Assembly: GCA_050948885.1 (NCBI GenBank)
Contig: JBMNER010000002.1
Coordinates: 107,344 to 171,343 of the forward strand
Source of the DNA: Bacilli bacterium
Lineage (GTDB): Bacteria > Bacillota_I > Bacilli_A > RF39 > UBA660
Length of the DNA: 64,000 nt
Direction: 5' to 3'
The notes below the pieces were generated by a model, which saw only the letters and a list, made by a program, of their open reading frames with translations, did not search any database and had not been told where the DNA came from. The position numbers were made by a program, and so were the translations under genes. The number at the start of each line of letters is the position of its first letter. Positions within the stretch are counted from its first letter, which is position 1. Positions 1 through 31,819 of the stretch are shown piece by piece.

Positions 1-36
1 GGTGGTGGAGGTGGTGGAGGTGGTGGAGGTGGTGGT
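1..36 (+). repeat. Tandem 9-bp repeat (GGTGGTGGA) x4 encoding a poly-glycine run
   Basis: Directly visible at the window start: ggtggtgga repeated four times. It lies inside the partial CDS below. Confidence 0.8.
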
Positions 37-372
37 GAGGTCAGTTATCAAGATACGGGGTTAAAAATATATGAAACTATAAATTTTATAGATTTGGAAA
101 AACATAATAGTGTAAATATAGAATATAGTCTTGGGGATGGTATAAAAAAACAAGCTAGCGGGGTATTGGGCAACGATTTAAGCTCTGTATGCCAATTATA
201 TTTAGCAGCCCTTTTTGGAGAGAAAGTAGATACTGGAGAAATTACATTTATGCTAATTATATCTCCTGATATTGCCGATGGGACAGGACTACACATTGTT
301 ATACCAGAAGCGGAAGTACTTAAATACGAAAACACCCTAGAGTTTAAAGTGTATAAGATCTGGTTTGAATAA
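1..372 (+). CDS. 3' portion of a gene entering from upstream: a 12-residue Gly run (GGGGGGGGGGGGE) followed by a ~110 aa C-terminal domain; hypothetical protein
   Basis: Frame 1 is open from position 1 and continuous with ORF 94..372 (stop at 370-372). The downstream pgk has its own RBS. No family recognised. Confidence 0.45.
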   Translation, partial: GGGGGGGGGGGGEVSYQDTGLKIYETINFIDLEKHNSVNIEYSLGDGIKKQASGVLGNDLSSVCQLYLAALFGEKVDTGEITFMLIISPDIADGTGLHIVIPEAEVLKYENTLEFKVYKIWFE

Positions 373-423
373 ATTTTAAGAACATAATATTATAATAATT
401 TTAATTTAACAAAGGGGAAAACC

Positions 424-1608
424 ATGAAAAAAACCGTTAGGGATTTTGCGTTAGAAGGAAAAAAAGTAATTGTTAGATGTGACTTTAATGTGCCCATTGT
501 TGATGGTAATATTACTGATGATAGTAAAATTAAAGCCAGTTTAGATACCATAAGATATATTATTGATCAACAGGGGAAAGTTATCTTATTATCGCATCTT
601 GGAAGAATTAAGGATGAAATAGACAAACCACATAATACCTTAAGACCAGTGGCTGAGAAGTTATCAGTTTTATTAAACCAAGCGGTTGCGTTTATTCCCG
701 TCACTAAAGGTCCACAAGTAGAATCCGCGATTGCTAATTTAAGTAACGGGGATATTATCCTCATTGAAAACACGAGATATGAAGATATTAATCAAAACAA
801 AGAAAGTAATAATGATTATGAACTTGGCAAATACTGGGCTTCATTAGGTGATATCTTTATTAATGATGCCTTTGGTACTCTTCATCGCGCTCATGCTTCT
901 AATGTTGGTATTGCTAGTAACTTAGTAAGCGGTATTGGTTTTTTAGTGGAAAAGGAACTAAATGTGATGACCCCAATTATTAATAATCCGAAGCGACCTT
1001 TGATAGTAATTTTAGGTGGTAAGAAGGTCAGCGATAAGATTGAGGTAATTGAACATTTGGTTACGATTGCTGATCAAATCATTATTGGTGGGGCGATGTG
1101 TTATACTTTTCTGAAGGCCCAAGGTTATCAGGTGGGATTATCACTAGTCGAAGATAATCAATTGGGTTTTTGTGAGGAAATATTAAAACAATATCAACAA
1201 AAAATAATACTCCCCATTGATATTAATGTGGCTTTAGAATATGCCCCTAATGCGAAAGGCAGAATAGTTAGTATTAATAATATAAATTATAACGAAATGG
1301 GTTTGGATATCGGCCCCCAAACTATTAATTTATATAAAAATGTTTTACGACCAGCTAAAACCGTTATTTGGAATGGTCCAATGGGCGTTTTTGAATTTAA
1401 TTCTTTTAATATTGGTACGAAGAGTTTATGTGATTTTTTATCAAAACAAAAAATAACGGTTCTTATCGGTGGTGGTGATAGTGTTGCTTTTGTTAAAAAG
1501 TTTGGTTATCAAGATAAGTTTACTCACATCTCAACCGGTGGCGGTGCCACTCTTGAATTACTCTCGGGAAAAGATCTACCCGGGATAACAATTATTGATA
1601 GTAAATAA
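424..1608 (+). CDS. pgk: Phosphoglycerate kinase
   Basis: 394 aa with typical PGK N-terminus (VRCDFNVP), hinge and C-terminal motifs (GGGDS, STGGGA). RBS aaagggg upstream. Confidence 0.95.
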   Translation: MKKTVRDFALEGKKVIVRCDFNVPIVDGNITDDSKIKASLDTIRYIIDQQGKVILLSHLGRIKDEIDKPHNTLRPVAEKLSVLLNQAVAFIPVTKGPQVESAIANLSNGDIILIENTRYEDINQNKESNNDYELGKYWASLGDIFINDAFGTLHRAHASNVGIASNLVSGIGFLVEKELNVMTPIINNPKRPLIVILGGKKVSDKIEVIEHLVTIADQIIIGGAMCYTFLKAQGYQVGLSLVEDNQLGFCEEILKQYQQKIILPIDINVALEYAPNAKGRIVSINNINYNEMGLDIGPQTINLYKNVLRPAKTVIWNGPMGVFEFNSFNIGTKSLCDFLSKQKITVLIGGGDSVAFVKKFGYQDKFTHISTGGGATLELLSGKDLPGITIIDSK

Positions 1609-1671
1609 AATCTATAATAAACTCTTGAGCCTTATTATATTATAGGGGGTAAATTACAAGGGAGCGATAAA

Positions 1672-2397
1672 ATGAAAAAGTTAGTAGTGGCTAATTTAAA
1701 AATGAACTTAGGACTAGAGGCGGTTCAAAAATATATCACCACGATTAAAGGGCAAATTACTAATCAACTCTTAGTTATTATTTGCCCCTCTTTTCCTTTT
1801 TTATCATTGTTTAAAAGTGCGGAATATCAGTTAGGATCCCAAAACACTTTTTATAAAAAAGACGGAAATTATACGGGTGAGGTTTCTCCTTCTCAGTTAA
1901 AATCATTAGGAGTAAAATATATTATTGTTGGTCATAGTGAAAGAAGACTTATTTTCCATGAAACTAATAAAATAATTAATCAGAAAGTGGCGGCCGTTTT
2001 AAAAGAAAATCTATATCCTATTCTTTGTGTGGGTGAAAATAAAGAACAGAAATTATTACATAAAACGCCAGTGGTTATTAAAGAACAACTTAACGAAGCT
2101 TTAAAAAAGATTGATCAGGAAATGCTTAATGACGTTATTATTGCTTATGAACCTATTTGGGCGATAGGGACCGGTTTAACACCTACTCCTGGTGAGATTA
2201 ATTCAATGGGTGAATTTATTAAACGAGTTATGAGCTTTGAATACAATGCTAATAACACCAGGGTTTTATATGGCGGTAGTATTAATCAAAATAATATCAA
2301 GAGCATATTCTCATTAGAAAATATTGATGGGGTTTTAATAGGTGGAGCCGCTGTAAATCCTGATTTGTTCATAGAGACTCTAAATAAAATAAGTTAA
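1672..2397 (+). CDS. tpiA: Triosephosphate isomerase
   Basis: 241 aa with conserved motifs VVANLKMN, IIVGHSERR, AYEPIWAIGTG and YGGS. Gene order pgk-tpi as in Firmicutes. Confidence 0.95.
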   Translation: MKKLVVANLKMNLGLEAVQKYITTIKGQITNQLLVIICPSFPFLSLFKSAEYQLGSQNTFYKKDGNYTGEVSPSQLKSLGVKYIIVGHSERRLIFHETNKIINQKVAAVLKENLYPILCVGENKEQKLLHKTPVVIKEQLNEALKKIDQEMLNDVIIAYEPIWAIGTGLTPTPGEINSMGEFIKRVMSFEYNANNTRVLYGGSINQNNIKSIFSLENIDGVLIGGAAVNPDLFIETLNKIS

Positions 2398-2450
2398 ATA
2401 GATAGATAATATTTTTTCTACCCTGATAATATATTTTATCAGGTGAGGAC

Positions 2451-3413
2451 ATGGATTTAATCTTGTTTTTTATTATTGCGGTCATTACTATAATTCTTAG
2501 TATTAAATTATCCCATTATGCCGATATGTTAGACAAGGGGACCAAGGCGAAAGGTTTTTTTATTGGTGGAGTCTTATTGGCTGGCGTTACTAGTTTACCA
2601 GAGTTGGTCACGACTCTTTCTAGTGTTAGTTTAAATAATCCGGCCTTAGCAATTGGGGATATTATTGGGAGTATAATATATAACTTTATCATTATTGTGG
2701 TCCTTGACTTAATCTTTATACGAAAAAGGTTTATGAATAAAGTCTCTGATAAGTATGTGATTGTTCATTTAATTTTAATTTACATCTTTGTGATTTTAAT
2801 CGCCTATTTTAAAGGCGAATTAATCGGTGGTATATATAATATTGGCCTTCCGACCATCATAATAATTATTTGCTATCTAATTTATCTATTGGTGGTCTCT
2901 CGAACAAAACTATCTACTTCTAAACCAAAAACTTCTAATAATAAACCAGCCATAATAATAAAATTCACTCTTACCTCAATATTAATGGTTATTGTAAGTA
3001 TCCTTTTAACGATTAATGTTAACCAGATATCTATTATTTACTCTAATTTCTCCGCCAGCGTTATTGGGGCTTTTTTACTTGGGATTACCACAAGCCTCCC
3101 CGAGACCGTGTCCGCATATGTCTTAATTCGGATGGGTAGTTATAATTTGGGTTATTCTAACATTGTGGGAAGTAATATGGTCGATTTTTTAATTATCGCC
3201 TTAGCCGATTTTTTTGTGCCAAGTAAAATAATTTATGATTTTTATGATCAGGATACATTACTACTAACATACCTTGGTTTAGCGTTCTGTATTATTTTAA
3301 TCTATCCAATCATTAGGCAACGGAGCAACTTTAAGATAACTTATCTTATACCGTCACTGGTAATTTTGCTTATTTATTTAATGTTTTGGTTTTATTTATT
3401 ACTAGGAAATTAA
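2451..3413 (+). CDS. Ca2+/cation antiporter (CaCA / Na-Ca exchanger family) membrane protein
   Basis: 320 aa polytopic protein carrying two alpha-repeat motifs, G(V/T)TSLPE(L/T)V. Assigned to the family by established knowledge. Confidence 0.7.
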   Translation: MDLILFFIIAVITIILSIKLSHYADMLDKGTKAKGFFIGGVLLAGVTSLPELVTTLSSVSLNNPALAIGDIIGSIIYNFIIIVVLDLIFIRKRFMNKVSDKYVIVHLILIYIFVILIAYFKGELIGGIYNIGLPTIIIIICYLIYLLVVSRTKLSTSKPKTSNNKPAIIIKFTLTSILMVIVSILLTINVNQISIIYSNFSASVIGAFLLGITTSLPETVSAYVLIRMGSYNLGYSNIVGSNMVDFLIIALADFFVPSKIIYDFYDQDTLLLTYLGLAFCIILIYPIIRQRSNFKITYLIPSLVILLIYLMFWFYLLLGN

Positions 3414-3498
3414 TAATATAAATGAGAGCATTTTAATTGGTTTTATGTTTGCAAATAAACTAATTATATGATAAATTAAATAACAGGGAAGTGAGAAT

Positions 3499-3711
3499 GT
3501 GGAAACCATTTTATTAATTGTGGCTCTTTTATTAATTGCCATTGTCCTTTTACAAAGTGGGAAAGCCGAAAGCGCCTCACAAGTAATCCAGGGCGGTAAT
3601 GCTGACCTTTTTAGTCAACGTAAAGAAAGAGGATTAGAATTATTAATAAGTAGAATAACTATGATATTAGGCGCCTTATTTTTTATTTTATCCTTAATTC
3701 TATCACTCTAA
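3499..3711 (+). CDS. secG: Preprotein translocase subunit SecG (GTG start)
   Basis: 70 aa with two TM segments around a central Gly-rich hydrophilic loop (QSGKAESASQVIQGGNADLFS). Conserved position upstream of rnr-smpB. Confidence 0.7.
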   Translation: METILLIVALLLIAIVLLQSGKAESASQVIQGGNADLFSQRKERGLELLISRITMILGALFFILSLILSL

Positions 3712-3771
3712 AATATAAGGCTTATCAAAGCTTTTTTCTTTTATTAGTAGTTTAAAAAAGCAGGTGTAAAT

Positions 3772-5865
3772 ATGAAAGAAAGCATACTAACGATTTTAAA
3801 AGAATCTAATCAAGCTTTAAGTATTAAAGAATTGAATAGTTTATTATTATTAACAACTAAGGAAGAACATCAACATTTGCTTGAAACAATGAAGTCTTTA
3901 GAAGAAGAGTTTTTAATTTATCGTACTCATCATCAGCGCTATCTTCATTTTGTTAATAGTCCTTTAAAACAGGGCCGCCTTATTATCAATAAGAAGGGCT
4001 TTGGCTTTGTAGCTGTTGATAATGAAGATGACATTTATATTAGGGCGGATAATTTAAATAAGGCTATTCATAATGATTTGGTTATTATTAAAATAATTAG
4101 TAAGCCAGGTATTGCTAAACAGGAAGGACGCATCGTAAAGATTCTCAAGCGGGAACTAGATAATTTAATTGGCGAAGTTATAGGGCGTAAAAATAAATGG
4201 TACCTAAAACTAGATGACGACCGGATAAAACTCAAAATAGTTATCGCGCCTGATAAACTTAATGGGGCTGTTGCCGGTCACAAAGTAATCTTAAAAGTTA
4301 TTGCCGAACTAGGTCTTAATAAATATAAGGGTGAGGTTATCAAAATACTTGGGCATAAGAATGATCCTGGTATTGATATATTAACGATTCTTCATAAGTA
4401 TCATTTTGATAATACTTTTAATCCTAATTTAATGCTTGAAGTGGAAAAAGTACCAAATAAAATAAGTACTCTTGATATTAAAGGAAGAAGAGATTTACGA
4501 CATAATATGATTTTTACTATTGATGATGCTGACGCGAAAGATTTAGATGATGCTGTTTCCCTTAAAAGATTAGCTAATGGTCATTATTTATTAGGTATTC
4601 ATATCGCTGATGTTAGTTATTATCTTTCTGAGGAGAGCCTAATTAATCAAGAAGCCAAACAAAGGGGTACCAGTGTTTATTTAGTTGACTCGGTTGTTCC
4701 CATGTTACCTCACCAATTATCTAATGGTATTTGTTCCTTAAATGAAGGCGTTGATCGTTTAACCATCACCTGTGAGGTGGAAATAGATAGTCGTGGTCAG
4801 GTTATCAAATATGACCTTTATGAAAGCGTTATCAATTCAAAAAAGAAAATGACCTATCAAAAAGTAAATCAAATATTAGAGCATAATTTAAACGCGCCAG
4901 GGTATGAACCGTTTTATCAAGTGCTTAGTGATATGCAAGAGTTATCTGATATATTAACTCGCACGAAAGAGAAGCGCGGTTATCTTGATTTTGCCTTAGA
5001 CGAAGCCAAAATAATAGTTGATAATAATGGAAAACCGCTGGATATTAAGCTAAGGGAAAGAGGCGTTGGTCAAAAGATAATTGAAGATTTTATGATTATA
5101 GCCAATGAAACAGTGGCTCATCATATTAATCACTTAAACCTACCCTTTGTTTATCGTATCCACGAATATCCAGAAGAAGAGAAAATCCGTTCCTTTTTAA
5201 AATTTCTTACTATATTAGGGTATAATATTAAAGGTAGACCTAAGGATTTACATCCTAAAGCCATTCAAAACATCTTAAATAATCTAAAAGATAAAAAAGA
5301 ATTTAAGATATTATCTAGCTTATTACTAAGGGCCATGAAAAAAGCTATTTATGCCCCAAATAATGTCGGGCATTATGGACTGGCTAGTCGCTGTTATACT
5401 CATTTTACAGCCCCTATCAGAAGGTACCCAGATCTTATAGTTCACCGTTTACTACGAACATATATATTTAATCAGAATATTAATAATAAGACCGTGGATG
5501 AGTGGCTGTTAAAACTAGGCCCCTTATGTGAGCACTCTTCCTTAAAGGAAAGAGAAGCCATTGACTGTGAAAGAGAAGTAATGGATATGAAAATGGCTGA
5601 ATATATGCTAGACCATATCGGCAAAGAATATACCGGCATCATATCTTCAGTCATGAAATTTGGTTTATTTGTTGAGCTTGATAACCTGGTTGAAGGATTA
5701 ATTCATATTACTGATATAAAGGATGATTATTATTTATATGATGAAACAACCCTTAGCTTAGTTGGCAAAAGAACTAATAAACGTTATCGAATAGGTGATA
5801 TCATAAATATAAAAGTGAAGAGTGCTTCTAAGGAAGCCAAAAGCATTGATTTTGAATTAGCATGA
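3772..5865 (+). CDS. rnr: Ribonuclease R (RNase II/VacB family, C-terminal S1 domain)
   Basis: 697 aa. RNB catalytic motifs (DDADAKDLDDAVS, HFTAPIRRYPDLIVHR) and a C-terminal S1-like segment. Synteny secG-rnr-smpB. Confidence 0.9.
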   Translation: MKESILTILKESNQALSIKELNSLLLLTTKEEHQHLLETMKSLEEEFLIYRTHHQRYLHFVNSPLKQGRLIINKKGFGFVAVDNEDDIYIRADNLNKAIHNDLVIIKIISKPGIAKQEGRIVKILKRELDNLIGEVIGRKNKWYLKLDDDRIKLKIVIAPDKLNGAVAGHKVILKVIAELGLNKYKGEVIKILGHKNDPGIDILTILHKYHFDNTFNPNLMLEVEKVPNKISTLDIKGRRDLRHNMIFTIDDADAKDLDDAVSLKRLANGHYLLGIHIADVSYYLSEESLINQEAKQRGTSVYLVDSVVPMLPHQLSNGICSLNEGVDRLTITCEVEIDSRGQVIKYDLYESVINSKKKMTYQKVNQILEHNLNAPGYEPFYQVLSDMQELSDILTRTKEKRGYLDFALDEAKIIVDNNGKPLDIKLRERGVGQKIIEDFMIIANETVAHHINHLNLPFVYRIHEYPEEEKIRSFLKFLTILGYNIKGRPKDLHPKAIQNILNNLKDKKEFKILSSLLLRAMKKAIYAPNNVGHYGLASRCYTHFTAPIRRYPDLIVHRLLRTYIFNQNINNKTVDEWLLKLGPLCEHSSLKEREAIDCEREVMDMKMAEYMLDHIGKEYTGIISSVMKFGLFVELDNLVEGLIHITDIKDDYYLYDETTLSLVGKRTNKRYRIGDIINIKVKSASKEAKSIDFELA

Positions 5866-5879
5866 AAGGAGCTTAAATA

Positions 5880-6032
5880 GTGCCCGCAAAGAAAACAACT
5901 ACTTTAGTAACGATTTTAATAATACTATCAATTGGTTTACTATTATGTATAATATATATTAATAAGGATTTACATCAAAAAGAACAAGCTGATCAATTAA
6001 AGAAAACAACTGTAATTAATTTTAAAGTATAA
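5880..6032 (+). CDS. Small (50 aa) single-TM membrane protein, not in the ORF track
   Basis: GTG start 8 nt after a strong RBS (aaaggagc). One hydrophobic helix ([19 protein letters not shown]) then a charged tail. Sits between rnr and smpB. Confidence 0.4.
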
Positions 6033-6063
6033 ATTAATAATAAAAGATCCAAGGGGTGAAAAA

Positions 6064-6513
6064 ATGACCCAAGAAATAATAAACCGGAAAGCCAAATATG
6101 ACTATTTTATTGAGGAAACACATGAAGCTGGTATTGTTTTAAAAGGGACTGAGATTAAATCAATTAGAAATGGCAGGGCTAATTTTAACGATGCCTATGC
6201 GATAATTCAAAATCAGGAACTATATCTTCTAAATATGTTTATTGCCCCTTACCATCAAGGTAATTTATTTAATCATGATGAGCGTCGGACCCGAAAATTA
6301 TTAATGCATAAAAAGGAAATAATTAAATTAGAAAACAAGTTGCGTTTAACTGGTTATACTTTAGTACCCTTAAAATTATATTTTAAGAATAACAAAGCTA
6401 AAATATTACTTGGATTAGGGAAAGGCAAAAAAAGTTATGATAAGAGAGAGATAATAAAGAAAAGAGATCAAGAAAGAGAAATAAGAAAGGAAACTAAATA
6501 TAATTTGCGGTAG
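6064..6513 (+). CDS. smpB: SsrA-binding protein SmpB
   Basis: 149 aa with SmpB signature ([19 protein letters not shown] ... [15 protein letters not shown]) and a basic C-terminal tail. Confidence 0.95.
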
Positions 6514-6534
6514 TTCATTGTATAATAAAAGCGT

Positions 6535-27288: not shown

Positions 27289-27314
27289 AAACAAGTTGAA
27301 TAACTTGTTTTTTA
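27289..27314 (+). terminator. Rho-independent terminator followed by the tsaE promoter -10 (tataat at 27320-27325)
   Basis: aaacaagtt gaat aacttgttt tttt. Confidence 0.6.
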
Positions 27315-27341
27315 TTTGCTATAATAGACTAAGGTGATAAT

Positions 27342-27794
27342 ATGGAATATCGAGTAACAACTTATAAGGAGCAAGAAACCATTGAACTCGCTCAAAACTT
27401 TGAATCAGAAAAATTCCCTAACATGATTATTTGTTTAGAAGGCGATTTAGGGAGTGGTAAAACCATTTTTGCGAAAGGAATTGGTAGTGGTCTTGGTATT
27501 GAAGAAAATATAACCTCGCCCACTTTTACTATTATTAAAGAATATGAACAAGGCGAGATTCCTTTTTACCATGTTGATGTTTATCGGGTAAAAGGTTCTT
27601 ATGCTGATTTAGGAATAGAAGAATACTACGATAAAAAAGGGATTGTGGTAATTGAATGGGCCGATATGATTGAGGATATTTTGCCCAAGGAAAGATTGCG
27701 TATTAAAATAAAGGTCGTTGGTGAGAATACGCGCGTGTTTATTATTAAACCTTATGGTCATAAGTATGAAGATTTATGTGAGAAAGTTCTGTGA
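27342..27794 (+). CDS. tsaE: tRNA t6A37 biosynthesis ATPase TsaE (YjeE)
   Basis: 150 aa. GDLGSGKTIFAKG P-loop and SPTFTII motif. Confidence 0.9.
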   Translation: MEYRVTTYKEQETIELAQNFESEKFPNMIICLEGDLGSGKTIFAKGIGSGLGIEENITSPTFTIIKEYEQGEIPFYHVDVYRVKGSYADLGIEEYYDKKGIVVIEWADMIEDILPKERLRIKIKVVGENTRVFIIKPYGHKYEDLCEKVL

Positions 27795-28360
27795 TAACTT
27801 TATTTATTGATACTTCGTTATCATCTTTAGTTATAGGAATTGTGAAGGATAATAAATTATTATATTCTAATATAAAAGAATTAGATAATGATTTATCTAA
27901 ATATACTCTCCCAACCACCCAGCAAGCTTTAGCTAATTTACAATTAAAACCAAATGATATTGATACTATTATGGTTGTTAATGGGCCTGGTTCATTTACC
28001 GGGATTAGGATTGGCATCACTATTGCGAAAGTATATGCTTGGGCCCTAAATAAAAAAGTAATTCCTATCTCAGGCCTAAAAGCTAGAGCCATATCATCAT
28101 TAGAAAACGATTATATTATCGCCATAATTGATGTTAAAGATAGTTATTATTATGCCGGTATATACAATAAACATTATAAGGTAATTATGAGCGATAGATA
28201 TATTAATCAAAAAGACTTAATTTTAGAAATAAAAAAGCTGGGGAACAATTTTACTATTGTCAGTGATCAAGCTTTTAAGATTAATAAATTCAAAGCGGAA
28301 AAAAGAAAGTTAGATATTTTAAAGATTGTTCAATACCATCAGCACGATGCTGGGAGTTAA
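27791..28360 (+). CDS. tsaB: tRNA t6A37 biosynthesis protein TsaB (YeaZ)
   Basis: 189 aa. Inactive Kae1/YgjD-like fold (VNGPGSFTGIRIG). GTG start overlapping the tsaE stop. Confidence 0.85.
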   Translation: MITLFIDTSLSSLVIGIVKDNKLLYSNIKELDNDLSKYTLPTTQQALANLQLKPNDIDTIMVVNGPGSFTGIRIGITIAKVYAWALNKKVIPISGLKARAISSLENDYIIAIIDVKDSYYYAGIYNKHYKVIMSDRYINQKDLILEIKKLGNNFTIVSDQAFKINKFKAEKRKLDILKIVQYHQHDAGS

Positions 28361-28445: not shown

Positions 28446-29450
28446 ATGAAGGATATATATATTCTAGCAATAGAAACTAGTTGTGATGAAACTAGTGTTA
28501 GTATTACTAAAAATGGTACCGAAGAGATAAGCACGGTTATCCTATCCCAGATGGATATTCATAAACAATATGGGGGGGTAGTACCGGAAATTGCTAGTCG
28601 CAAGCATTTAGAAAACATAACGATGGTCTTAGAAGAAACGCTTAGTAAAGCGAAGATGAAAATGACCGAGATTGATTTTCTGGCGGTTACCTATGGCCCC
28701 GGTTTAATAGGTTCTTTGTTAATTGGTTTAGAGGCGGCTAAAACATTAGCCTTTATTTATCAAAAACCATTAATTCCAGTTCATCACATTGCTGGTCATA
28801 TTTACGCTAATAAATTAAATAATAAATTGTGCTTCCCCTTAATCTGTTTGGTAGTAAGTGGCGGGCATACAGATCTTATTTATATGGAAAAGGATTATTC
28901 TTTTTTAAAAATTGGGGGTACCTTAGATGATGCTGTTGGGGAGTCTTATGATAAGGTGGCTCGCGTTTTAGGTCTAAGTTATCCTGGGGGACCTATTATC
29001 GATAAATTAGCGACCAAAGGGCAAGACACCTATGATTTACCATTACCTCTTGATGATGATACCTACAACTTTAGTTTTAGTGGCATCAAAAGTGCCGTTA
29101 TGAATTTAATCAATAACGAAAAACAAAGAGGGAATAAAGTAAGAGTTGAAGATGTCGCAACTAGCTTCCAAAATCGCATTATTAATATTTTGACTAAAAA
29201 AACCATGAGAGCAGTAGAAGAGTATCAAGTAAGACAATTATTAATTGCTGGAGGGGTGGCAGCCAATAAAGGGCTTAGAGAAAAGTTTAAACAATTATGT
29301 GCCAAGGGAAATATCGCTTTAAGTATTCCGAAGATAAAATATTGTACTGATAATGCTACCATGATTAGTATAGCCGCTTATTATGCCTATCATAAGGGCC
29401 ATGTTGCTAATTTAGAAATAAGTGGTAAAGCTAATGTATCAATAAAGTGA
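28446..29450 (+). CDS. tsaD: tRNA N6-adenosine threonylcarbamoyltransferase TsaD (Kae1/YgjD)
   Basis: 334 aa. ETSCDETSV, metal-binding HHIAGH, SGG and GGVAAN motifs. Confidence 0.95.
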   Translation: MKDIYILAIETSCDETSVSITKNGTEEISTVILSQMDIHKQYGGVVPEIASRKHLENITMVLEETLSKAKMKMTEIDFLAVTYGPGLIGSLLIGLEAAKTLAFIYQKPLIPVHHIAGHIYANKLNNKLCFPLICLVVSGGHTDLIYMEKDYSFLKIGGTLDDAVGESYDKVARVLGLSYPGGPIIDKLATKGQDTYDLPLPLDDDTYNFSFSGIKSAVMNLINNEKQRGNKVRVEDVATSFQNRIINILTKKTMRAVEEYQVRQLLIAGGVAANKGLREKFKQLCAKGNIALSIPKIKYCTDNATMISIAAYYAYHKGHVANLEISGKANVSIK

Positions 29451-29463
29451 GGTGGATATAAGA

Positions 29464-31005
29464 ATGAATCAAAGAGCGTTTACATTAATAGAATTATTAG
29501 CCGTTATTGTTATTATAGGGGTAATATCTTTAATAACGATTCCGGTCGTAACCCGTTTAATTACCGAAAATAAAATGGATGTTTTTAAAACCCATGAAAA
29601 AGCATTAGAAACAGCGGCTGAGTCATACATGTCTGTTAACCAAAATAAATTGCCAGAAATGATAGATGAAACAACGGAAGTTACTTTACAAGAACTAATT
29701 AATACAGGCTTTATTAAACCAATGACTAGCCCCAACAATAAAAAGAAGCAATGTAGCGGTTATGTTTTAGTTACTAAAGAAAAAGAAAACATTTATGTTT
29801 ATACTCCTCATTTAAATTGTATAGAAGATTTTGGTAATGCCGAAGATGATGGGTTAGTTTTACATTATAAATTTGATGATTTTCAGGAGCCGACGGAGAA
29901 TATCTTTGACGATTTAGGATTAGTAGCGATACGAGAACTTACCTATATATACATAGGAGAAGAAGACGGATGGTTAAAATATGGTATTTCAGGTGTGGGT
30001 AATGATGATACTTATCCATATAGATTTACTATAAAGCCAATGATAATCCATTCAGATTACCCAACCAGTGTATCCTTTAAATATAAAACAAATGTTGGTG
30101 AAAAATTTTATTCTTTTGGGGACCCAAGAATGGTTAATATACGCTATAAAGATGGATTTAAAAAAACGGAGATAGATAAGGAGGCATATAAAGAGGTTAC
30201 AATAGAAAACATTTCACCGTTAGAAACACTTGCTGGTGTGCCTATAGAGGGTGAATCACATCAACCTATATATTTCTTATCAAGACCAAAAGAAGGTGAA
30301 GTATTTAATCCAGAAACCGATTATATATATTTTAAGGACGTTCAAGTAGAAATAAAACCTTATTCTACTTCATATACGAAAGGAGTTAGAACCGGCGTAG
30401 TAAAAGATTATTCTTCTAAAGGGAATAGTAGTCTTTTACAACTAAATACTACACCCAGATGGGTAGTGGATAGTAAAATAGGTGAAGGAGCATATGAATT
30501 TAATGGAATAAATAGTTATATCGATACTAACAATCCATTTAATTTTACTAAAGAAGGCTCTTTTTCAATAAGTTTTTGGATTAATTCTGAAGATCATTCG
30601 CATAAAGAAGGCGTTGCCGCTGGAATAGTGGGTAAAGGTCATTGGTATGATAATACATGGGATATTTCTCTTTCAAATACAAATCAAATTAGATTTGAAT
30701 GTTCTGGGAACCCTACAAGAAGTGGCATTATAGCTATATTTTCCCCAGAACTTAGCCTGCGAAAGTGGCATTATTATACTGCTACTTATGATAAGGGTAT
30801 TATTAGAATATATTTAGACGGTGTTTTTACATCTACGATGACATATAACGGTACAGGTGATTTTAATGGTAATCGAAATGTAAGGATAGGCATAAGACAT
30901 ACTGATATATCTAGAGTGTTTAACGGAAAGTTAGACGATGTTCGTATCTATAATCGCGCTCTATCAGATGAAGAGGTAATGTTTATGTATGAAAGATATA
31001 AATAA
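29464..31005 (+). CDS. Modular type IV pilin-like / pseudopilin protein with a C-terminal concanavalin-A-like (LamG / Laminin_G_3) lectin-type domain
   Basis: Class III signal with N-methylation motif (MNQRA|FTLIELLAVIVIIGVISLI; Ala instead of Gly at -1). Pilin-like D-region Cys pair (QCSG ... HLNC). C-terminal LamG hallmark GKLDDVRIYNRALSDEEV. The ATG at 29464 has an RBS and lies 13 nt after the tsaD stop. Confidence 0.7.
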   Translation: MNQRAFTLIELLAVIVIIGVISLITIPVVTRLITENKMDVFKTHEKALETAAESYMSVNQNKLPEMIDETTEVTLQELINTGFIKPMTSPNNKKKQCSGYVLVTKEKENIYVYTPHLNCIEDFGNAEDDGLVLHYKFDDFQEPTENIFDDLGLVAIRELTYIYIGEEDGWLKYGISGVGNDDTYPYRFTIKPMIIHSDYPTSVSFKYKTNVGEKFYSFGDPRMVNIRYKDGFKKTEIDKEAYKEVTIENISPLETLAGVPIEGESHQPIYFLSRPKEGEVFNPETDYIYFKDVQVEIKPYSTSYTKGVRTGVVKDYSSKGNSSLLQLNTTPRWVVDSKIGEGAYEFNGINSYIDTNNPFNFTKEGSFSISFWINSEDHSHKEGVAAGIVGKGHWYDNTWDISLSNTNQIRFECSGNPTRSGIIAIFSPELSLRKWHYYTATYDKGIIRIYLDGVFTSTMTYNGTGDFNGNRNVRIGIRHTDISRVFNGKLDDVRIYNRALSDEEVMFMYERYK

Positions 31006-31028
31006 GTATTCTTATTTAATTAACAGAA

Positions 31029-31055
31029 AAAAAGATTATTTATAATCTTTTTTCT
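31029..31055. terminator. Hairpin (possible bidirectional terminator) at the junction of the convergent pilin-LamG and ABC permease genes
   Basis: aaaaagattat tt ataatctttttt. It overlaps the last codons of the minus-strand permease gene. Confidence 0.4.
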
Positions 31056-31819
31056 ATATAACAAACTAACCAGTACATTATATATGCTACTATTCCCAGT
31101 AAGATAATGCCTGTTACCACTAAATTTAAATTAAATACCTGCGAACCATACATGATTAAATAACCTATTCCTTTTCTTGATACGAGTAATTCACCCATTA
31201 CAACGCCAATAAGGGCCATACTAACATTTATTTTTAAAGCATTTACTAAAGTCGATAAATTCCCGGGTAAGATGGCCTTTAGGAAAATATCTACTTTACT
31301 AGCTTTAAAGGATTTTAGTAATTTTATTTTATTGATATCAAAGTTAACAAATCCGTAATAGACATTGATAATGGTTATAATCGTTGATATTAAAAGAGCC
31401 ATTAGAATAATGGAATTAGTATTAGCGCCTACCCAGATAATAATAATTGGACCAAGGGCAACTTTTGGCAAACTATTTAAGATGGTTAAATAAGGGTCAA
31501 AAACACGAGCTAAGAAGTTATTCCACCAAAGCATAATTGCCATACCAACACCAATAATAGTAGCGAGCGAAAAACTAATAATGGTTTCATAAACAGTGGT
31601 AAATATATGGCGGTATAAATTATTAGTTTGATGCAGGCTAATAATGGTTCTTAAGACATTACTTGGGCTGGAGACTAAAAACGGATTAACAATATGGAAA
31701 TGGGTTAACAACTCCCATATGAGGATAAAAGCGAAGATGATAAATATCTGGGTACTTAAAATAAGTCTATTTCTTTTCTTGATTCTTTTTAAATACTGCT
31801 GATGTTCTATACTAAACAT
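31040..31819 (-). CDS. ABC transporter permease (NitT/TauT / SsuC-TauC family)
   Basis: 259 aa with 6 TM segments and a BPD_transp_1-type EAA-like loop. Gene order binding protein-ATPase-permease. Confidence 0.8.
   Translation of the reverse strand: MFSIEHQQYLKRIKKRNRLILSTQIFIIFAFILIWELLTHFHIVNPFLVSSPSNVLRTIISLHQTNNLYRHIFTTVYETIISFSLATIIGVGMAIMLWWNNFLARVFDPYLTILNSLPKVALGPIIIIWVGANTNSIILMALLISTIITIINVYYGFVNFDINKIKLLKSFKASKVDIFLKAILPGNLSTLVNALKINVSMALIGVVMGELLVSRKGIGYLIMYGSQVFNLNLVVTGIILLGIVAYIMYWLVCYIEKRL

Follow-up and report, generated by a model that had tools for sequence, protein, structure and literature searches.

Modular pilins are defined by an N-terminal IPR012902 domain and one or more further domains not peculiar to type IV pili, and the combination of N_methyl (IPR012902) with PF13385 is among their commonest architectures (Raynaud et al., 2021; PMC8179133). 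The closest described protein is PilC of Streptococcus sanguinis, which consists of a pilin moiety, an Ig-like module and a lectin module and binds glycans (PDB 7OA7, 7OA8; PMC9934059). It has been modelled at the pilus tip. Other examples are S. sanguinis PilB (pilin and vWA) and CofB of ETEC (pilin, beta-repeat and beta-sandwich), which likewise carry bulky modules on a short linker; their modules are presented by the filament, probably at its tip, for adhesion (PMC8179133). LamG-type folds that bind carbohydrates or receptors also occur in domain 4 of AbnA (5HON), in clostridial neurotoxin Hc-N and in sialidase CBM40, but there they belong to secreted enzymes and toxins and not to filaments. 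Anaerobic polysaccharide-degrading Firmicutes have been proposed to attach to plant polysaccharides by means of type IV pilins, and CbpC/GP25 of Ruminococcus albus are type IV pilin-like cellulose-binding proteins. The latter are small classical pilins without grafted lectins, unlike the protein described here.

We analysed a 64-kb stretch of DNA from an uncultured Bacilli species, hereafter the window. It contains a modular type IV prepilin gene that follows the tsaE, tsaB and tsaD genes. The features of this locus are as follows.

27296 to 27325, + strand: highest-ranking sigma-70-like promoter match 5' of tsaE (TTGAAT-18-TATAAT with TG); candidate for a tsaE-tsaB-tsaD-pilin transcript
27342 to 27794, + strand: tsaE (Pfam TsaE on an identical JGI contig)
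27791 to 28360, + strand: tsaB (open reading frame)
28446 to 29450, + strand: tsaD (Pfam TsaD on the identical JGI contig), stop codon at 29448 to 29450
29449 to 29455, + strand: Shine-Dalgarno-like GAGGTGG as read from the letters, 8 nt 5' of the ATG, overlapping the tsaD stop
29464 to 31005, + strand: modular type IV prepilin gene, ATG at 29464, TAA at 31003 to 31005, 513 aa plus stop
29464 to 29538, + strand: class III signal peptide with leader MNQRA (residues 1-5); PF07963 and TIGR02532 above cut-offs
29464 to 29832, + strand: pilin module, residues 1-123, from AlphaFold2 secondary structure, Cys conservation and PilA/PilE1 homology
29833 to 29904, + strand: conserved linker, residues 124-147, ...DGLVLHYKFDDFQEPTEN; coincides with the 5' limit of allelic replacement
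29905 to 30363, + strand: hypervariable middle module, a beta-sandwich of residues about 148-300; the full-length model is all-beta here, with high pLDDT
30364 to 31002, + strand: conserved junction (QVEIKPYSTSYT...TPRW), then LamG/concanavalin-A-like module
31025 to 31055, strand not assigned: AT-rich hairpin with an A-run and a T-run at its sides, likely a bidirectional terminator

The gene product is 513 aa long; the 517 residues given in an earlier note on this DNA start at an upstream in-frame GTG (29452). Its N-terminus (MNQRA, then FTLIELLAVIVIIGVISLITIPVV) has the features of a class III signal of type IV pilins. Residues 1-25 match Pfam N_methyl (PF07963) with 27.0 bits against a cut-off of 21.2; for TIGR02532 the values are 27.7 and 16.3 bits. 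The predicted cleavage site lies before F6, which places E10 as the Glu at position +5, and the hydrophobic alpha1N helix comes next. In 48 full-length homologues (27-48% identity) T7, L8 and E10 are invariant, and G/A5 and F6 are each retained in 90% or more, so that the prepilin signal proposed earlier is borne out both by the two models and by conservation of the motif. The earlier note had also pointed to Ala at position -1 as a reason to doubt processing. [quoted passage not shown]

A full-length AlphaFold2 model (pLDDT 90.7, pTM 0.87) has a lollipop-shaped pilin followed by two beta-sandwiches. The head comprises a 51-residue alpha1 helix (residues 8-58) and strands at residues 70-74, 98-107 and 110-118, with pLDDT of 90-97, and its homology to operon-encoded PilA extends beyond alpha1N. 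Residues 1-124 are 32-34% identical over 100-124 aa (E 1e-10 to 1e-11) to Bacillales PilA proteins, taken from pil operons of Brevibacillus, Paenibacillus and Bacillaceae in which PilA stands beside PilB/T/C/D. The pilin module also gave a profile match to S. sanguinis PilE1 (E 2.6e-11). The cysteines of the QCSG and HLNC motifs are C97 (29752-29754) and C119 (29818-29820). They lie on both sides of the last hairpin and each is kept in at least 90% of the 48 homologues. The pilin-like head with a Cys pair that had been suggested from the letters is thus found in the model, in the conservation and in the identity to operon PilA.

The part that follows the head had been described as an extension of about 350 aa ending in a LamG domain. 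The LamG end stands, but the extension is not a single module: in the model a hypervariable beta-sandwich comes first and LamG second. Laminin_G_3 (PF13385) covers residues 348-505 (30505-30978; E 2.8e-27, 96.2 bits, cut-off 27.6), a score above the gathering threshold that goes together with a jelly-roll fold, and Pfam also lists a Toxin_R_bind_N match at residues 313-500. The C-terminal end of the protein is GKLDDVRIYNRALSDEEV. When the middle module was modelled alone from a 6-sequence alignment, pLDDT was 65 and this model was not used for a fold search. With N_methyl, Laminin_G_3 and two separate beta-sandwiches after the head, the protein is a modular pilin in the sense of Raynaud et al. 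(2021), in line with the earlier comparison to the S. sanguinis modular pilins. Chance origin is excluded, judging from 518 database homologues, dozens of which have equal architecture and length.

How far does the likeness to described proteins go? The window protein and PilC (PMC9934059) have a pilin moiety, a beta-sandwich and a concanavalin-A/LamG-like lectin in common order. The two are 13-17% identical, in structural alignments only, and therefore the window protein is no PilC orthologue. PilC is encoded inside the pil locus, whereas the window gene lies far from it, unlinked to pil genes and, in a scan of the window, with no adjacent small pilin. The sheet of the PilC head is three-stranded and distorted and depends on the partner PilA for its stability, while the window head has a regular small sheet stapled by its Cys pair. 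The middle module is Ig-like in PilC and a strain-variable jelly-roll here. Effector folds and ligands also differ from those of S. sanguinis PilB, where vWA has protein ligands, and of CofB, which has an adaptor role. The Pfam architecture is identical to that of a class in the catalogue of Raynaud et al. (2021; PMC8179133), which is a domain census without characterisation. Beyond that catalogue, the window family has a conserved linker and junction around a hypervariable middle, allele replacement at strain level, and a dispersed multi-copy organisation in uncultured low-GC Bacilli.

The linker (residues 124-147) has a mean identity of 66% across the family, the highest of all segments. The median identity of the middle module is 14% across the family, and strains of one species are 13-30% identical to each other in it. 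Where flanks are about 99% identical, the alleles of different strains still differ by replacement of residues about 150-480, and DNA identity to one such strain (L091) falls at about 29890-29900. The cassette is also found on other scaffolds. A 796-aa pilin encoded in a pil cluster (L094, below) aligns to window residues 119-509 with 30% identity (E 3e-38) while its pilin module differs, and another locus (L089) carries the effector cassette on a non-pilin scaffold with a Sec-type signal. What is new here is the replacement of alleles over about 150-480 between strains, together with a linker-sandwich-LamG cassette on a different pilin scaffold.

The pilin start codon had been placed 13 nt after the tsaD stop. 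We counted the same 13 nt and found no terminator between the two, nor any promoter-like site on the + strand from 28129 to the pilin ATG. The pilin gene may be co-transcribed with tsaEBD. The promoter match ahead of tsaE is only a candidate because the total number of promoter matches was below shuffle expectation. Downstream, the region 31000-31060, where the pilin gene and an ABC permease gene converge, folds with -11.2 kcal/mol (z -3.4 against shuffles); its hairpin was missed by a G+C-based terminator scan. Rfam returned no riboswitch or other regulatory RNA close to the pilin gene. The description of the gene as fused onto the tsaEBD operon does not hold beyond this species, the only one in which adjacency to tsaD was seen. 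In a related genus a pilin copy lies upstream of tsaE, across tsaEBD, and in further relatives copies lie between unrelated housekeeping genes. Functional coupling was rejected on these grounds, and the adjacency is therefore a positional accident with no functional link to tsaD.

The gene had been called an orphan, and within the window this is correct: Pfam searches of the other open reading frames of at least 100 aa found no T2SSE, T2SSF or Peptidase_A24, and a six-frame scan found no second prepilin motif. For the species it probably is not. On contig L094 a gene for a 453-aa T2SSE ATPase (PilB) is oriented away from four prepilin genes, of which three encode LamG. The tetranucleotide distance between L094 and the window (0.011) equals that of the window's own-species fragments, while for other Bacilli loci the distance is at least 0.019. 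A locus 97.7% identical to L094 (L092) is a piece of the MAG record FZPS01000101.1, other pieces of which are 99.5% identical to the window. A third contig, L134, is 98.5% identical to L094. On it PilB is followed by a 255-aa protein with A24_N_bact and Peptidase_A24, the prepilin peptidase, and then by the start of a T2SSF (PilC) gene; its PilB is also found in run SRR31061295, the source of a 99.1%-identical copy of window positions 6-6534. These machinery contigs are separate from that of the pilin gene, and the link consists of composition, the binned record and co-occurrence in sequencing runs. Very probably, the species carries a PilB-PilD-PilC cluster and further LamG pilins on another contig. 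The prepilin peptidase and assembly genes whose absence would have spoken against a pilin are thus found, as PilB, PilD and partial PilC, in DNA attributed to the species. The pilin is therefore probably no true orphan: assembly genes appear to lie elsewhere in the genome of this uncultured species.

A further PilB (P0128) shares JGI metagenome 3300053716 and run SRR31065934 with the window. It was rejected as the species' own: its contig has 28% GC and a tetranucleotide distance of 0.021, it matches a UBA1423-type MAG, which is a different organism, and NCBI accession numbers put it in another assembly. An exact look-up did not find the window TsaD in the MAG that carries it. The Walker A motif of T2SSE in this clade reads GATGTGKST, against the GxTGSGK pattern.

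Dispersal of the pilin genes is also seen in related Bacilli. In a BLASTP search with PilB/T/C/D/M from three Bacillales loci, none of about 77 pilin loci of uncultured Bacilli had a PilB, PilC or PilD within 10 kb; therefore the linkage is atypical for Firmicutes. A profile search of contigs with the full-length alignment, in which the generic FTLIELL pattern dominates, returned mostly N-terminal pilin matches from other MAGs, and in these pilins and machinery are unlinked. Assembly genes occur in relatives too, where PilB matches and family members have common contig-length fingerprints in three cases: 54113 (P0127/P0014), 913761 (P0137/P0039) and 32791 (P0157/L008). One genome fragment of 820 kb has at least eight such modular pilin genes. 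Literature searches on pili in RFN20 or RF39 turned up nothing of relevance to this pilin family.

We consider it likely that the gene encodes a minor type IV pilin of three modules, displayed on the pilus as an adhesin. In the proposed sequence of events the prepilin would enter the membrane via its class III signal, and the PilD of the species would cut after Ala5, leaving a mature protein with N-terminal Phe and Glu at +5. The PilB ATPase and the PilC platform, encoded elsewhere in the genome, would then build the pilin module into a type IV filament. With about 390 residues of beta-sandwich and LamG suspended from the head, the tip of the filament or its vicinity would be the most likely place. 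There the two jelly-roll modules may bind a glycan, which might be a polysaccharide or a sugar on a cell surface. LamG domains mediate protein contacts as well.

Other arrangements would place the same modules differently. The protein could belong to a short pseudopilus of the Com or T2SS kind, holding the lectins just past the cell wall or aiding DNA uptake or secretion. The minimal machinery of PilB, PilD and PilC, with PilT and PilM/N/O absent within 10 kb of the pil cluster, is consistent with this, as are weak matches to the ComGC, GspG, ComGE and ComGF models. All of these matches are confined to the N-terminal alpha1 helix, though, and lie far under the NCBIfam equivalog cut-offs (ComGC 31.8 bits against 75, GspG 27.2 against 88.85, ComGE 19.5 against 49, ComGF 16.9 against 80), so that the protein does not fall into the competence or T2SS pseudopilin families. 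Moreover, the ATPase of L094 is 45-50% identical to Bacillales PilB and is not of ComGA size, and lectin-bearing modular pilins are documented in true pili (PMC9934059). We regard a pseudopilus subunit as unlikely.

Slightly less probable still is a major, shaft-forming pilin, in which case the filament would consist largely of this subunit or its paralogues and form a thick fibre with lectins along its length. The resemblance of the module to Bacillales PilA, to S. sanguinis PilE1 and to the N-termini of PilA/ComGC/GspG models fits such a role. So does the pil cluster attributed to the species, where all prepilins are atypical (GFILTE and GFTVFE types) and a small major pilin is not evident, and so does the richness of related genomes in such large pilins. 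Yet a helical filament would have difficulty accommodating about 390 extra residues per subunit, and the last place in a housekeeping operon speaks against expression as high as major pilins usually show. Related MAGs commonly encode small pilins of 125-150 aa whose N-termini are similar, and the pilin inventory seen for the species is partial. The literature also puts modular pilins at the tip (PMC8179133). An uncleaved signal anchor, which would leave the protein as a surface lectin tethered to the membrane, with no part in a type IV filament, could account for the lack of nearby assembly genes, for Ala at -1 and for the cassette on non-pilin scaffolds such as L089, but is very improbable given a +5 Glu that is invariant across a divergent family although a plain membrane anchor has no need of a buried Glu, near-invariant F+1 and G/A-1, a globular head homologous to operon-encoded pilins, a prepilin peptidase in species-attributed DNA and an accepted cleavage context (PMC9934059).

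A broader and more tentative picture is possible, in which the type IV pili of this clade of uncultured, low-GC, anaerobic Bacilli serve as a display platform for a large and fast-evolving lectin repertoire. The linker HYKFDDFQEPTEN and a C-terminal DDVRIYNRALS would frame a swappable beta-sandwich and LamG, exchanged among alleles at one locus, pilin scaffolds and non-pilin proteins, with many copies dispersed among housekeeping genes outside the pil locus and adhesin variation driven by recombination. Such variation would have a logic like that of pilin antigenic variation, but on grafted binding modules.

Simple filaments acquire new binding functions through modular pilins, of which only a few, from cultured pathogens, have been studied. 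The same design is heavily used in uncultured Bacilli from bioreactor and gut-type metagenomes, and an orphan pilin in a 64-kb window is no sign of missing machinery. Conserved frames around a variable cassette would suit a natural scaffold for the display of binding domains on pili. Should these proteins bind plant or microbial polysaccharides or host glycans, they would chiefly determine what the organisms attach to.

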